Assembly: GCA_913053845.1 (NCBI GenBank)
Contig: CAJXGD010000002.1
Span: 13,732 to 77,731 of the forward strand
Source of the DNA: an uncultured bacterium
GTDB taxonomy: Bacteria; Bipolaricaulota; Bipolaricaulia; RBG-16-55-9; DRJF01
Reading direction: 5' to 3'
DNA length: 64,000 nt
The notes under the pieces were generated by a model. The model was not told where the DNA came from. It saw only the letters and a program-made list of their open reading frames with translations, and made no database searches. A program made the translations under genes and the position numbers. Below are positions 59,749 to 62,822 of the stretch, piece by piece (position 1 is the first letter of the stretch; every line of letters begins with the position of its first letter).

Positions 59749-60873
59749 ATGGCAGAGCAAAGACCGCTGAATAGAGTTCGATCTGAGCTGCAAGCGGGGA
59801 TGAGATTTGCGAAATGTGGCAAGTGCGGATGCATGAAAGGGACCCTGGAAAGCCTAGAGTCCTCTCTGTCTTCATTCCAAACTGAAGATCCTTCGGATCT
59901 GGCTAAAAACATCGAACACTGGTTGAAGCAGATGGAACCTGTGAAGTATGCTTGCCTGGGTTGTGAGTACTGCTTTCCGGCAATGGCAATGAATCTCTTC
60001 CAGCAGGCCTTCCCTGCGGCTGTACAGGCTCAATCGTTGGATTGTGCCTTTGAAGTGAGAGAGCAAAGCTGGCCCTCTGTGCCGGGGGAGTATTTTGCCT
60101 GCTGCGATGGTGCAAGTTGTCCCGTGGCCGTCTCAACCCTTGCCAGTGTGGAACTTGCCGCAAAACTTGCTGCTGTAAAACCGAGGCAACTGTGCATTGT
60201 CGGCAAGACGGAGACGGAAAACATCGGCATCGATAAGGTCATCAAGAACATAATCACCAATCCGACCATCCGCGTTCTTCTTCTAACCGGAAGAGACCCC
60301 CAGGGGCATCACAGTGGCCAGACATTTCTCTCCCTGGGGGAAAATGGTGTGGATGAACGTATGAGGGTGATAGGTTCTCCTGGTAGGCGCCCGATGCTAA
60401 GGAACGTGACCTCCGAGGAGGTAGAAGCCTTTCGGAAGCAGGTACAGGTTGTAGATATGATGGGGTGCGAAGACGAAGAAAGGATCGTGGCCAAACTCAG
60501 AGAACTCTCTCGGAGGTTTGCTCCATCCCAGAGCGGTAAAGAATCTGGTGAGCAGAATGAGTCCCTGCAATTCTCCACGGTGCCTGTCATGGTCATTCAA
60601 GCGCAAGAGCCAACCAGAATCGAGATGGACCGGGCGGGCTATTTCGTGATCATTCTCCAACCCCAGAGAGGGATCATCATAGTTGAGCATTATGATTACG
60701 ATAACAGGATGTTAAGGGTTATTGAGGGTAAGGATGCCAGAACTGTCTACTGGACGATGATCGAGAACGGCTGGGTGACTCAATTGAGCCATGCTGCCTA
60801 TCTTGGCAAGGAGTTGGCAAGGGCTGAGCTGTCCATGGAGATGGGCTTTCAATATGTGCAAGACGGTGCCTAA
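59749..60873 (+). CDS. MtrA-like corrinoid-binding protein with Cys-rich N-terminal extension and DUF4346-like C-terminal domain
   Basis: The central region aligns with archaeal MtrA: WPSVPGEYFACCDGASCPVAVSTL ... GKTETENIGIDKVIKNIITNPTIRVLLLTGRDPQGHHSGQTFLSLGENGVD ... VIGSPGRRPML...EEVEAFRKQVQVVDMMGCEDEERIVAKLRE. Residues 20-80 hold the Cys clusters CGKCGC and CLGCEYC. GC is ~51% against the ~63% of the flanks. Confidence 0.7.
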   Translation: MAEQRPLNRVRSELQAGMRFAKCGKCGCMKGTLESLESSLSSFQTEDPSDLAKNIEHWLKQMEPVKYACLGCEYCFPAMAMNLFQQAFPAAVQAQSLDCAFEVREQSWPSVPGEYFACCDGASCPVAVSTLASVELAAKLAAVKPRQLCIVGKTETENIGIDKVIKNIITNPTIRVLLLTGRDPQGHHSGQTFLSLGENGVDERMRVIGSPGRRPMLRNVTSEEVEAFRKQVQVVDMMGCEDEERIVAKLRELSRRFAPSQSGKESGEQNESLQFSTVPVMVIQAQEPTRIEMDRAGYFVIILQPQRGIIIVEHYDYDNRMLRVIEGKDARTVYWTMIENGWVTQLSHAAYLGKELARAELSMEMGFQYVQDGA

Positions 60874-60874
60874 G

Positions 60875-61267
60875 ATGGAGACGAAAATGGAGCCTGCAAC
60901 CCAAGCCTTCAAGGCGCTGGCCGATCCCACCCGCCTGCGCCTGCTCAAGGCACTGCTAAGCATCGAGACACACAGGGGCATCTGTGTCTGCGAGCTGGTC
61001 GACGCGCTGGGCCTGCCACAGTATCAGGTCTCGCGTCAGTTGGGGCAGCTCAAGGGCGCCGGTTGGCTGCAGAGCGAGCGCCGCGGGACCTGGATATACT
61101 ACCGGGTCTCAGCAGAACTAGAGCCCTGGCAGACAGGCGTCCTAACGGCACTCTCTGATTTGCGGGGAGAGAGCTTCCAAGCGGACGAAACGCGACTCCA
61201 ACGCCGGCTGGCCCTGCGACAGGAGGGGCTCTGCGTGGTCGGCTATGAAGCGTCAGCGATCACCTGA
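60875..61267 (+). CDS. arsR: ArsR/SmtB family metalloregulator
   Basis: wHTH LADPTRLRLLKAL ... ICVCELV metal-sensing Cys motif. Starts 1 nt after the preceding stop. Confidence 0.85.
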   Translation: METKMEPATQAFKALADPTRLRLLKALLSIETHRGICVCELVDALGLPQYQVSRQLGQLKGAGWLQSERRGTWIYYRVSAELEPWQTGVLTALSDLRGESFQADETRLQRRLALRQEGLCVVGYEASAIT

Positions 61268-61288
61268 TCAACATGGAGCCTGACACTC

Positions 61289-62410
61289 ATGCCTAGGATC
61301 ACGACAACTATCGCCGCTCACCGCGACGGCGTGGCCAAACAGCTTGCGGCGCTCGATCGCTTCCTCACGCTGTGGATCTTCCTGGCCATGGCGATTGGGG
61401 TAGCTGCAGGCTACTTCGTGCCCGGGATCGAATCTTTTATCGAGGGCTTCCAGGTGGGAACGACCAACATTCCCATCGCTATCGGCTTGATCCTCATGAT
61501 GTATCCACCTTTTGCCAAGGTCAAATACGAGGAGTTGGGTGGGGTCTTCCAAAATAGAAAGGTGCTAGGGCTCTCCTTGGGGCTGAACTGGTTGCTTGGC
61601 CCTGTCTTGATGTTCACCCTGGCTATTATCTTTCTACATAACTATCCAGAGTATATGGTTGGCTTGATTATGATCGGGTTGGCGCGCTGCATCGCTATGG
61701 TGATCGTCTGGAACGAGCTGGCCCAGGGTGACACCGAGTATGCAGCCGGGCTGGTGGCTTTCAACAGTGTCTTTCAGGTGCTGTTTTATAGCGTTTATGC
61801 CTGGGTCTTCATCACTGTGCTGCCCCCCTTGTTCGGTGTGCGGGGCGGTGTGGTGCAGATCGGGATCGGAGAGATCGCCGCAAGTGTCTTTTTTTACCTG
61901 GGTGTCCCCATGATCGCTGGCTTTCTGACCAGGTTCATCCTGTTGAAAGTCAGAGATCGGGAATGGTATGAGATAATATTTATTCCTCGGATTAGCCCTC
62001 TGACCCTTATCGCGCTGCTCTTCACCATCGTGGTGATGTTCAGCTTGAAGGGTAATCTGATCGTCCAAATCCCCCTTGACGTTGTCCGCATCGCCATACC
62101 GCTTGTAATCTATTTTGTGCTGATGTTCCTGGTCAGCTTCTGGATGGGGCGTAAGATCGGAGCGGACTATTCCACAACGACCACCTTGGCCTTCACCGCT
62201 GCCAGCAACAACTTTGAACTGGCCATCGCCGTTGCTGTGGCTGTTTTCGGCATCAACTCCGGCGCCGCTTTCGCAGCGGTGATTGGCCCGTTGATCGAGG
62301 TGCCGGTGATGATCAATTTGGTGCAGGTGGCCTGCTACTTTCGGAGACGCTACTTTGGCCATGAGCTGAGTGCCGCGACCGCCGCACAGGAGGTAGATGG
62401 ATGTGACTAA
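61289..62410 (+). CDS. acr3: arsenite efflux transporter, ACR3 family
   Basis: 10-TM BART-superfamily pattern. N-terminal [16 protein letters not shown]...[12 protein letters not shown] typical of Acr3. Confidence 0.9.
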
Positions 62411-62822
62411 GCAGTTGATCTTCGTCTGCGTGGGCAACTCCTGCCGCAGCCAGATGGCCCAGGGTTTTTTCAATCACTATGCGCGCCAGCGCGGGCTGAA
62501 GATTCGCGCCCAGAGCGCCGGCACCCGGCCTGCCGGCTATGTCCACCCTCAGGCGATTCAAGTGATGGCCGAGCGGGGCATTGATATTTCAGGGCAGCAC
62601 TCCAAGGGAATCACCCTCCAGGAGCTCTTGGAATATGACCTGGTGATCACCATGGGCTGCTCCGATAAAAACACCTGTCCAGCCACCTTTCGCGGCGACG
62701 CGCGCGACTGGGCCATCGAAGACCCCTTCGATCAGACTCTGGATGTCTACAGGGCAGTGCGCGATCGGATCGAGACCAAGGTGCTGAAGCTGCTGGCCGA
62801 ATGCGCTCGGTGCCTACCCTGA
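62397..62822 (+). CDS. arsC: arsenate reductase, LMW-PTP/thioredoxin-coupled type
   Basis: [14 protein letters not shown]-loop and downstream Cys residues as in the Bacillus/Staphylococcus ArsC family. Confidence 0.85.

Follow-up and report, generated by a model that had tools for sequence, protein, structure and literature searches.

Microbial methylation and demethylation control how toxic and how mobile arsenic and mercury are. Anaerobic arsenic demethylation has been attributed to corrinoid methyltransferases, with the enzyme itself still unresolved (bioRxiv 10.64898/2026.08.27.747368), and the corrinoid genes hgcAB share a transcript with the gene for an ArsR-like, arsenic-responsive regulator (bioRxiv 10.1101/2022.10.17.512643). 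What HgcAB does physiologically, and why it is tied to ArsR and arsenic, is likewise unexplained. Here we describe an mtrA-like gene of a Candidatus Fraserbacteria genome, found in a 64-kb stretch of DNA (hereafter the window), together with the family to which it belongs. The family belongs to the mobile pool of genes for resistance to soft metal(loid)s, which lie in As/Sb, Hg and Cd/Zn/Pb islands under ArsR- or CadC-type sensors. Being widespread, mobile and integrated into ArsR/CadC regulons, this corrinoid protein family is a testable candidate for these gaps. Our leading explanation, to which we give somewhat less than an even chance, is that the product of the window gene is a soluble cobamide protein with three domains, that the gene opens an operon repressed by ArsR, and that the protein serves in methyl exchange with thiol-bound soft metal(loid)s.

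The closest known relatives of the window protein are MtrA of the archaeal methyl-tetrahydromethanopterin (H4MPT):coenzyme M (CoM) methyltransferase and its soluble homologues in methanogens (5LAA, 5L8X and 8Q3V). In contrast to MtrA, the window protein lacks a C-terminal membrane helix (no transmembrane helix was recognized) and ends in a DUF4346 domain, carries an additional N-terminal domain with six cysteines, belongs to a family that occurs in non-methanogens of many phyla, and has a genomic context of metal resistance rather than methanogenesis. An identity as a subunit of the Mtr complex is excluded by the match to TIGR01111, the equivalog model of Mtr-complex MtrA, which reached 121 bits against a cut-off of 249, and by the absence of mtr genes nearby: no mtrB-H genes occur in the window neighborhood, and no Mtr subunit is among the recurrent neighbors in 80 loci of the family. 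The original prediction, made from the letters of the window, had stated that MtrA is without a known role in a non-methanogen. Homologues in bacteria had already been mentioned, without study, in 2016 (PMC4915002).

Four other systems invite comparison. Like HgcA and HgcB, which methylate Hg(II), the family combines a corrinoid protein, a Cys-rich module, a soft metal and an ArsR-like, arsenic-responsive regulator, and the pairing of hgcAB with such a regulator is a partial precedent for a corrinoid protein in an ArsR-linked unit. In contrast, HgcA is membrane-anchored and its corrinoid domain is of the corrinoid iron-sulfur protein (CFeSP) type with a Cys cap helix, while HgcB is a separate ferredoxin with two [4Fe-4S] clusters. 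An HgcA-type protein was rejected for the window gene, for which Pfam returned MtrA and DUF4346 only and no CFeSP-type match. ArsM shares with the family its location in ars operons, conserved cysteines that could bind As(III), and selenocysteine variants in Clostridia. The NCBIfam models of the ArsM selenocysteine variants, NF041536 and NF041537, were among the sub-threshold matches in the search of neighboring genes. For the window protein, an ArsM-type S-adenosylmethionine (SAM) methyltransferase was rejected, as neither Pfam nor NCBIfam yielded a class I SAM-methyltransferase match. The Mer relay, which consists of a small protein that is exported, a membrane component with vicinal cysteines and an enzyme in the cytoplasm that has a Cys domain at its N-terminus, has a likeness in the small exported protein, the GCCGSP vicinal-Cys membrane protein and the enzyme described below, three parts that are sometimes fused in one polypeptide of the MtrA-like family. 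The likeness does not extend to sequence (no Pfam or NCBIfam match), and where the Mer system has a flavin disulfide reductase, the family has a corrinoid protein. Finally, cadC-cadA and smtB-smtA resemble the family in having an ArsR/SmtB regulator with a CVC motif, with or without an N-terminal Cys pair, and the family gene has a Zn/Cd/Pb P1B ATPase beside it in about 10 loci as well as on plasmids of Planococcus. Those units differ in having no cofactor-binding enzyme.

Domain architecture and predicted cobamide site

The mtrA-like open reading frame (ORF) spans 59749-60873 on the forward strand and encodes 374 aa; the first ATG is supported as the start by a 97%-identical relative (locus L081), which has Ile at the second Met. 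Residues 1-105 (59749..60063, +) form a Cys-rich domain, predicted to be helical, that contains the motifs C23-x2-C26-x-C28 and C69-x2-C72-x2-C75. Next come an MtrA-type cobamide-binding Rossmann domain (aa 106-256; 60064..60516, +), a low-confidence linker (aa 257-292; 60517..60624, +) with a predicted local distance difference test (pLDDT) score of 25-35, and a DUF4346 domain (aa 293-374 with the stop codon; 60625..60873, +) that displays the invariant motifs EHY, SHAAYLGxEL and YxQD. In alignment, the linker is without the SCSCxEC Cys cluster found in most relatives. The three-part layout had been predicted, and each part was recovered: the core by PF04208 (MtrA) on aa 106-256 (Pfam; E 4.4e-38, 131.1 bits against a gathering score of 25), the tail by PF14251 (PterinBD-DUF4346) on aa 293-372 (E 2e-22, 80.2 bits against 29.6), and the Cys-rich N-terminus by both Cys motifs, which are invariant in the family.

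The NCBIfam model NF002128 (PRK00964.1-6), a 390-aa equivalog named 'tetrahydromethanopterin S-methyltransferase subunit A', matched the protein with 431 bits, under its cut-off of 568. Since the alignment covers nearly the whole 374-aa protein (aa 6-374 on model positions 12-370), the two have the same architecture. One cluster-mate of the protein is named 'DUF4346 domain-containing protein' at NCBI, and by exact sequence several proteins of the window, which stems from a metagenome-assembled genome, fall in clusters in which the members with names are from Candidatus Fraserbacteria. The domain combination is thus already catalogued in Pfam and NCBIfam, and what is new is an MtrA-type corrinoid protein in a metal-resistance setting. 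No paper was found on DUF4346/PterinBD, this architecture, its metal-resistance context or its selenoprotein forms.

No Pfam family matched the first 105 residues, even at E<=10, and their profile found nothing significant among PDB sequences, with ferredoxin-motif matches only. The six cysteines of this domain are the only universally conserved cysteines in an alignment of 25 homologues. The domain was not found outside the MtrA-like family, as the 221 clusters matched all had the same architecture or were fragments. P0335, considered as another architecture with this domain, was rejected as a spurious repeat match, and short matches were fragments. The DUF4346 profile likewise gave nothing significant among PDB sequences (best E 0.029, KdsC). 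Archaeal dihydropteroate-synthase-like proteins (TIGR00284 match) also end in DUF4346, which hints at a tie of this domain to pterin-dependent one-carbon (C1) transfer.

The stretch ETENIGIDKVIKNIITNPTIRVLLLTGRDPQGHHSGQT aligns with the solved MtrA structures (5LAA and 5L8X; E about 1e-29). In MtrA, His84 is the cobalt ligand and Glu54 its hydrogen-bond partner, and Thr53, Asn55, Gly57, Asn64 and Tyr18 touch the cobalamin tail and ring (PMC4915002). Residues Y18, T53, E54, N55, G57, N64 and H84 of 5LAA map to Y115, T156, E157, N158, G160, N167 and H187 of the window protein, and these positions are invariant or at least 90% conserved across the 25 homologues, which come from different phyla. 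The predicted cobalt-ligating histidine stretch is therefore in place, with His187 (codon 60307-60309) falling on His84 and the partner Glu157 (codon 60217-60219) retained. The meander motif of MtrA, GAIPY/FxEN, reads GRRPMLRN in the window protein. Because all specific ligand-contacting side chains are conserved, the window protein very likely binds cobamide in the base-off/His-on mode of MtrA. Three alphaproteobacterial members (L069, L074 and L078) are without the Cys-rich N-terminal domain: about 20 residues precede their MtrA domain, and their histidine loop reads PKH rather than QGH.

Linkage to ArsR-type regulators and metal(loid) resistance genes

The family is large. At E<=1e-5, 2141 clusters (90% identity) match, many of them with 60-70% identity between phyla along the full length, and at least 575 species-representative genomes of bacteria and archaea carry a relative. 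The taxa include Acidobacteriota, Nitrospirota, Deltaproteobacteria, Bacteroidota, Chloroflexota and Firmicutes, as well as Thermoplasmata, Methanomassiliicoccales and Thaumarchaeota. The adjacency to ArsR-family regulators had been suspected to be non-random, and it is: in 80 loci, the density of ArsR-like ORFs is 0.20/kb up to 300 bp from the gene versus 0.013-0.015/kb at a distance of 2-8 kb, a ratio of about 14-fold (P about 3e-8, our own Poisson estimate from ORF counts). Most ArsRs within 2 kb of the gene have a CxC motif, usually CVC, and a second type of adjoining regulator resembles CadC, with an N-terminal Cys pair in addition to CVC.

Neighboring genes were counted in 69 informative loci that have 4 kb or more of flanking sequence, with markers scored within 5 kb. 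A metal(loid) marker was present in 28 of the 69, or in 28 of 51 when an 18-locus Nitrospirota clade is set aside. ArsR occurred in 20 loci; a P1B ATPase or a resistance-nodulation-division (RND) or cation diffusion facilitator (CDF) pump in 16; and Acr3, ArsC or ArsM in six. The neighboring ATPases are of the Zn/Cd/Pb type (NCBIfam). The arsenic-specific role of the original prediction does not fit these counts, in which arsenic genes (6/69) are outnumbered by Zn/Cd/Pb ATPases, RND and CDF pumps (16/69), nor the mer genes that flank one homologue (P0089). A SAM-dependent methyltransferase lies directly 3' of the gene in three loci, two of which (L049 and L050) exceed the NCBIfam cut-off for arsenite methyltransferase. 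Since an arsenite methyltransferase directly follows the gene in these two loci, the family is not simply an alternative to the ArsM route, as had been proposed.

The Pfam-annotated contigs of the closest homologues illustrate the range of contexts. ArsR lies directly upstream of P0034 (Blastocatellia), with an RND fragment upstream in L085, and P0045 is also accompanied by ArsR. A helix-turn-helix regulator and a P-type ATPase accompany P0074 (Thaumarchaeota). The gene for P0028 has RND, DUF302 and ArsR genes upstream and thioredoxin, DsbD and YHS genes downstream; P0066 neighbors an Acr3-like SBF protein, and P0071 neighbors ArsA, ArsR and methyltransferases. On a Thermodesulfobacteriota contig (L095:1-2436 and 7516-7986), the 63%-identical homologue P0089 sits in a mercury-resistance cluster with two MerA, MerC and MerR. 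No metal genes occur near the genes for P0007, P0107 and P0120, nor, with the queries used, near a homologue on a Paraburkholderia megaplasmid. Small mobilizable Planococcus plasmids carry an ArsR/SmtB (arsR/cadC) regulator, a cadA remnant with an HMA domain, and a 458-aa family member. One of them is the 13.5-kb plasmid NZ_CP013660.2 of the cultured aerobe P. kocurii ATCC 43650 (L089:464-1840 and L091:3482-4268). In the 458-aa Planococcus member, ACGC(D/N)D repeats that resemble metallothionein separate the N-terminal domain from the MtrA domain.

The Nitrospirota clade (L020-L048, Thermodesulfovibrionia) represents a lineage with a different, conserved context. In its 18 loci the gene is directly upstream of parA-parB, and no metal-resistance genes occur within 5 kb. 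In most of them it is divergent from a histidine kinase gene whose product has a Cys-rich C-terminus (CWEFQKCG...).

In the window, the stop codon of the mtrA-like gene ends at 60873 and arsR (60875..61267, +; NF033788, 83.6 bits) begins at 60875 on the same strand, followed by the arsenite efflux permease gene acr3 (61289..62410, +; TIGR00832, 449 bits against a cut-off of 282.8) and by arsC (62397..62822, +), which encodes an arsenate reductase of the low-molecular-weight-phosphatase type with a CX5R motif (PF01451, 105 bits; matches to TIGR02689 and TIGR02691 were under their cut-offs). The acr3 and arsC genes overlap by 14 nt. These coordinates confirm the predicted 1-nt gap to arsR and the gene order that follows it, with the qualification that the 97%-identical relative keeps a 50-nt spacer between the mtrA-like gene and arsR (L081, 1253-1305), and on this ground the gap is read as a recent deletion.

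A putative promoter with an operator precedes the mtrA-like gene at 59672..59708 (+). It comprises a -35-like TTGTTT (59672-59677), a 17-nt spacer and a TATAAT -10 box (59695-59700), the latter enclosed by the inverted repeat ATATGC-N8-GCATAT (59689-59708, +). A ribosome-binding site read from the sequence, GAGGAG (59734..59739, +), lies 9 nt before the ATG. The promoter/operator region is conserved in the 97%-identical relative. A scan with a consensus promoter called no promoter-like site on the forward strand, missing TTGTTT-N17-TATAAT, and found terminator-like sites at chance frequency. A repeat with 6-nt arms is not significant by itself, and its weight comes from recurrence in specific places. 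The exact core TATGC-N8-GCATA occurs once in the window and six times in 91 loci, versus roughly one expected, by our own estimate, for 10 specified bases in about 1.1 Mb of sequence. Of these six sites, five immediately precede the leading gene of an ArsR/MtrA-like unit, namely in two close relatives of the window, in the Verrucomicrobiia locus L015 (as GTATGC-N8-GCATAC) and in two Blastocatellia genomes, both with half-sites identical to those of the window. The sixth (L037) is within a histidine-kinase gene and is consistent with the chance expectation.

The window ArsR belongs to a subfamily of ArsR/SmtB regulators that is marked by CVC in helix alpha-3, by a C-terminal extension which is conserved and ends in G-x-C-x-x-G (pattern '..RL..RL.(L/I)R..G.C..G' in an alignment that includes the window ArsR), and by a putative operator of its own, ATATGC-N8-GCATAT. 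Members (window 60875-61267, L084:4554-4991, L015:5788-6180 and others) adjoin the MtrA-like gene in at least seven phyla, among them Nitrospira, Elusimicrobia, Verrucomicrobiia, Armatimonadota, Saganbacteria, Blastocatellia and Fraserbacteria. The C-terminal Cys of this subfamily may be a third As/Sb ligand. The predicted ArsR control of the whole mtrA-like/arsR/acr3/arsC unit from the promoter at 59672..59708 is plausible, because the genes are on the same strand with no intervening signal and the operator-like repeat recurs before orthologous arsR genes of other phyla.

Probable selenocysteine forms, partner proteins and proposed function

In eight other genomes, seven of them from Firmicutes and one from a deltaproteobacterium, an in-frame TGA takes the place of the Cys69 codon while the gene is otherwise intact. 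The TGA sites (L047:1150, L050:2847, L052:8205, L063:8187, L064:8166, L067:8163, L071:8148 and L056:8187) align with window codon 59953-59955. In these genes CFPA reads CWSA, and a conserved, GU-containing hairpin (CUGCU-GGUC-AGCAG) lies about 16 nt downstream of the TGA. No covariation was found in this hairpin, so it is not validated as a selenocysteine insertion sequence (SECIS). The TGA-bearing genes are a probable, unannotated selenoprotein form of the family. The window protein has Cys at position 69 and is hence not the selenoprotein form. A Sec/Cys pair such as that at residue 69 normally marks a redox-active or metal-binding catalytic residue.

Two partner proteins recur. In about 12 of the 80 loci the gene adjoins that of a membrane protein of about 165 aa, which resembles a four-helix membrane protein and has a GCxLxGCCGSP(ML) motif and a Cys-rich tail (L012:3459-3956, L027:1674-2129, L058:9363-9869, L055:15-548, L057:2886-3407 and L072:2894-3394). 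It comprises 514 database clusters, all labeled 'hypothetical', has no Pfam or NCBIfam family, and always adjoins or is fused to the MtrA-like protein (fused in P0029, P0080, P0086 and P0389). It is often accompanied by a small, secreted protein of about 125 aa (c8; L017:7108-7491 and eight other loci), which bears a signal or anchor, often has a Cys pair, and is encoded ahead of the membrane protein and the enzyme. This protein also has no Pfam or NCBIfam family, with a weak, non-significant match to CcmE/OB-fold, and is fused at the C-terminus in P0275 and P0392, so that fusions of partner proteins are known at either end of the MtrA-like enzyme. Because the arrangement mirrors MerP-MerT-MerA, it suggests by analogy that the set delivers a thiophilic substrate to the cytoplasmic enzyme. 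Extra Cys-rich inserts are a further feature of many family members.

The mechanism that we put forward starts from an mtrA-like/arsR/acr3/arsC operon that would be repressed by ArsR in the Candidatus Fraserbacteria genome. The six-Cys N-terminal domain, in which the first cysteine of a CxxC would be selenocysteine in some lineages, would capture thiophilic metal(loid) species, and in other genomes the fused or adjacent Cys-rich membrane protein and the small secreted protein would hand over the substrate in the manner of MerP-MerT-MerA. The corrinoid would then receive the substrate at its upper face, and a methyl group would pass between cobalt and the element there. We infer that the corrinoid probably exchanges methyl groups with a thiol- or selenol-bound metal(loid) in either direction. 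Both directions are reasonable by cobalamin chemistry. In one, methyl-Co(III) would methylate As(III), Sb, Hg or Pb to yield a volatile or exportable methyl species; in the other, Co(I) would take the methyl group off methylarsenicals (e.g. MAs(V)) or methylmercury (MeHg), and the inorganic product would exit via Acr3, or elsewhere via MerA or CadA. DUF4346 possibly docks or binds the methyl donor or acceptor.

Several observations weigh against this explanation. The conserved neighbors include neither an enzyme that donates or accepts methyl groups (MtrH, MtaA or MetH-like) nor a corrinoid activase. The methyl transfer of the original prediction is not supported in the form in which it was stated. 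DUF4346 is without a known function or a solved relative, and the AlphaFold models are too low in confidence (pLDDT 61 and 57) to place the Cys site relative to the corrin. The window protein is without the Cys-rich linker; neither the membrane partner nor the small secreted partner is encoded in the window. Rfam detected no cobalamin riboswitch or other RNA family in the 64-kb window, in which cobamide synthesis and uptake genes were not searched for. No metal gene was found in 16 of the 69 loci, besides which the 18-locus Nitrospirota clade adjoins parAB. Finally, the elements covered by the association differ in their chemistry, and this would suit a generic role no less than a specific enzyme.

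Such a generic role would be that of a metal(loid) buffer or metallochaperone, similar to metallothionein or ArsD, whose Cys-rich parts sequester As, Cd or Hg or feed exporters, with the corrinoid domain acting as a structural element, as a redox or ligand sensor, or being vestigial. We consider this unlikely. It would account for the variation in Cys-rich inserts (the SCSCxEC linker, the ACGC(D/N)D repeats of Planococcus and the Cys-rich tails) and for exporter partners as diverse as Acr3, P1B ATPases, RND and CDF pumps, and SmtB/SmtA is a precedent for an ArsR-family regulator beside a metallothionein. However, neither the residues that contact cobalamin nor the polar motifs of DUF4346 vary between phyla, which argues for a cofactor-dependent activity. 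Identity between phyla is 60-70% along the full length. The window protein has also lost the Cys-rich linker while all else was kept, and the fused membrane and secreted partners resemble an uptake relay rather than an aid to efflux. A cofactor-dependent activity could also be that of a corrinoid/iron-sulfur reductase, as in reductive dehalogenases and QueG, in which an Fe-S cluster of the N-terminal domain would reduce cobalt to Co(I), and Co(I) would reduce or cleave As(V), Hg(II) or the carbon-metal bond of an organometal. The motif Y-x-C-L-G-C-x-x-C-x-P-A is weakly similar to the CxxCxxC of the PsaC ferredoxin (E 0.3-2, not significant; Fer4_2, E 0.15), thioredoxin and DsbD/CcdA genes are directly 3' of the gene in Acidobacteria, and selenocysteine marks a redox-active site. 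Against this, there is only one, partial ferredoxin-like motif, selenocysteine is unusual as a natural Fe-S ligand, and reductases are already at hand as ArsC in the window and MerA at the P0089 locus. We regard such a reductase as quite unlikely.

Least probable, in our estimate, is an ordinary corrinoid carrier of C1 metabolism (e.g. for pterin-linked methyl transfer toward methionine or cofactors) that is mobile and lies beside ars genes by chance. The GC content of the gene, which differs from that of its neighbors and indicates acquisition, the Nitrospirota clade and the 16 other loci without metal genes nearby, and the DUF4346 ends of the archaeal dihydropteroate-synthase-like proteins would all suit such a carrier. 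Folate-independent methionine synthases are reported to be served by corrinoid proteins (PMC7857596). Chance adjacency is nevertheless difficult to reconcile with the roughly 14-fold enrichment of ArsR within 300 bp, with a conserved operator and a dedicated ArsR subfamily that go with the family, and with ars, mer and cad contexts that recur in unrelated phyla and on plasmids. The Cys/Sec-rich N-terminal domain and the Cys-rich fusion partners also speak against such a carrier.

Methyl exchange with thiol-bound soft metal(loid)s by a cobamide protein thus remains our preferred explanation. There is a realistic chance that the family is a new enzyme class. The more specific proposal that it is a new class of cobamide-dependent organometal(loid) methyltransferase or demethylase, spread horizontally via ars, mer and cad islands and using a Cys/Sec relay to the corrinoid, is possible but doubtful. 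Equally speculative is what would follow from such a class, namely a long-sought ArsM-independent methylation of the methylcobalamin type, or an oxygen-independent (ArsI-/MerB-independent) demethylase for methylarsenicals and methylmercury. If true, this would be the first role of MtrA-type cobamide binding outside methanogenesis; if the protein merely sequesters metal, it would be a modest addition to the catalogue of resistance genes. Tractable sources of family members are the plasmid of P. kocurii ATCC 43650 and the cultured Sedimentibacter saalensis DSM 13558.

Composition and neighboring genes of the window

The mtrA-like gene has a GC content of 51.7% (57.6% at third codon positions, GC3) versus 63.4% (GC3 74.8%) for arsR, in agreement with the contrast first noted between the two genes, and secDF and eamA have 60-62% (GC3 77-84%). 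As a compositional outlier relative to its neighbors, the mtrA-like gene was probably acquired. Its neighbors in the window are eamA, arsR, acr3, arsC and fdhD. The last of these (62801-63742, same strand) encodes a sulfurtransferase for molybdenum enzymes of the bis-pyranopterin guanine dinucleotide type (Mo-bisPGD) and overlaps the end of arsC by 22 nt. It may be co-transcribed with the ars unit, and the gene order is the same in the close relative L081.

Elsewhere in the window, a block of about 19 kb on the reverse strand (18000-37200) has a lower GC content of 52-55% (GC3 51-65%). It encodes a molybdoenzyme of the xanthine dehydrogenase family (MoCoBD and flavin adenine dinucleotide subunits), an ATP-binding cassette transporter of the Bmp/PnrA type, a class-V aminotransferase, peptidases and a GntR/FCD regulator, and is probably an acquired island for the catabolism of purines or N-heterocycles.

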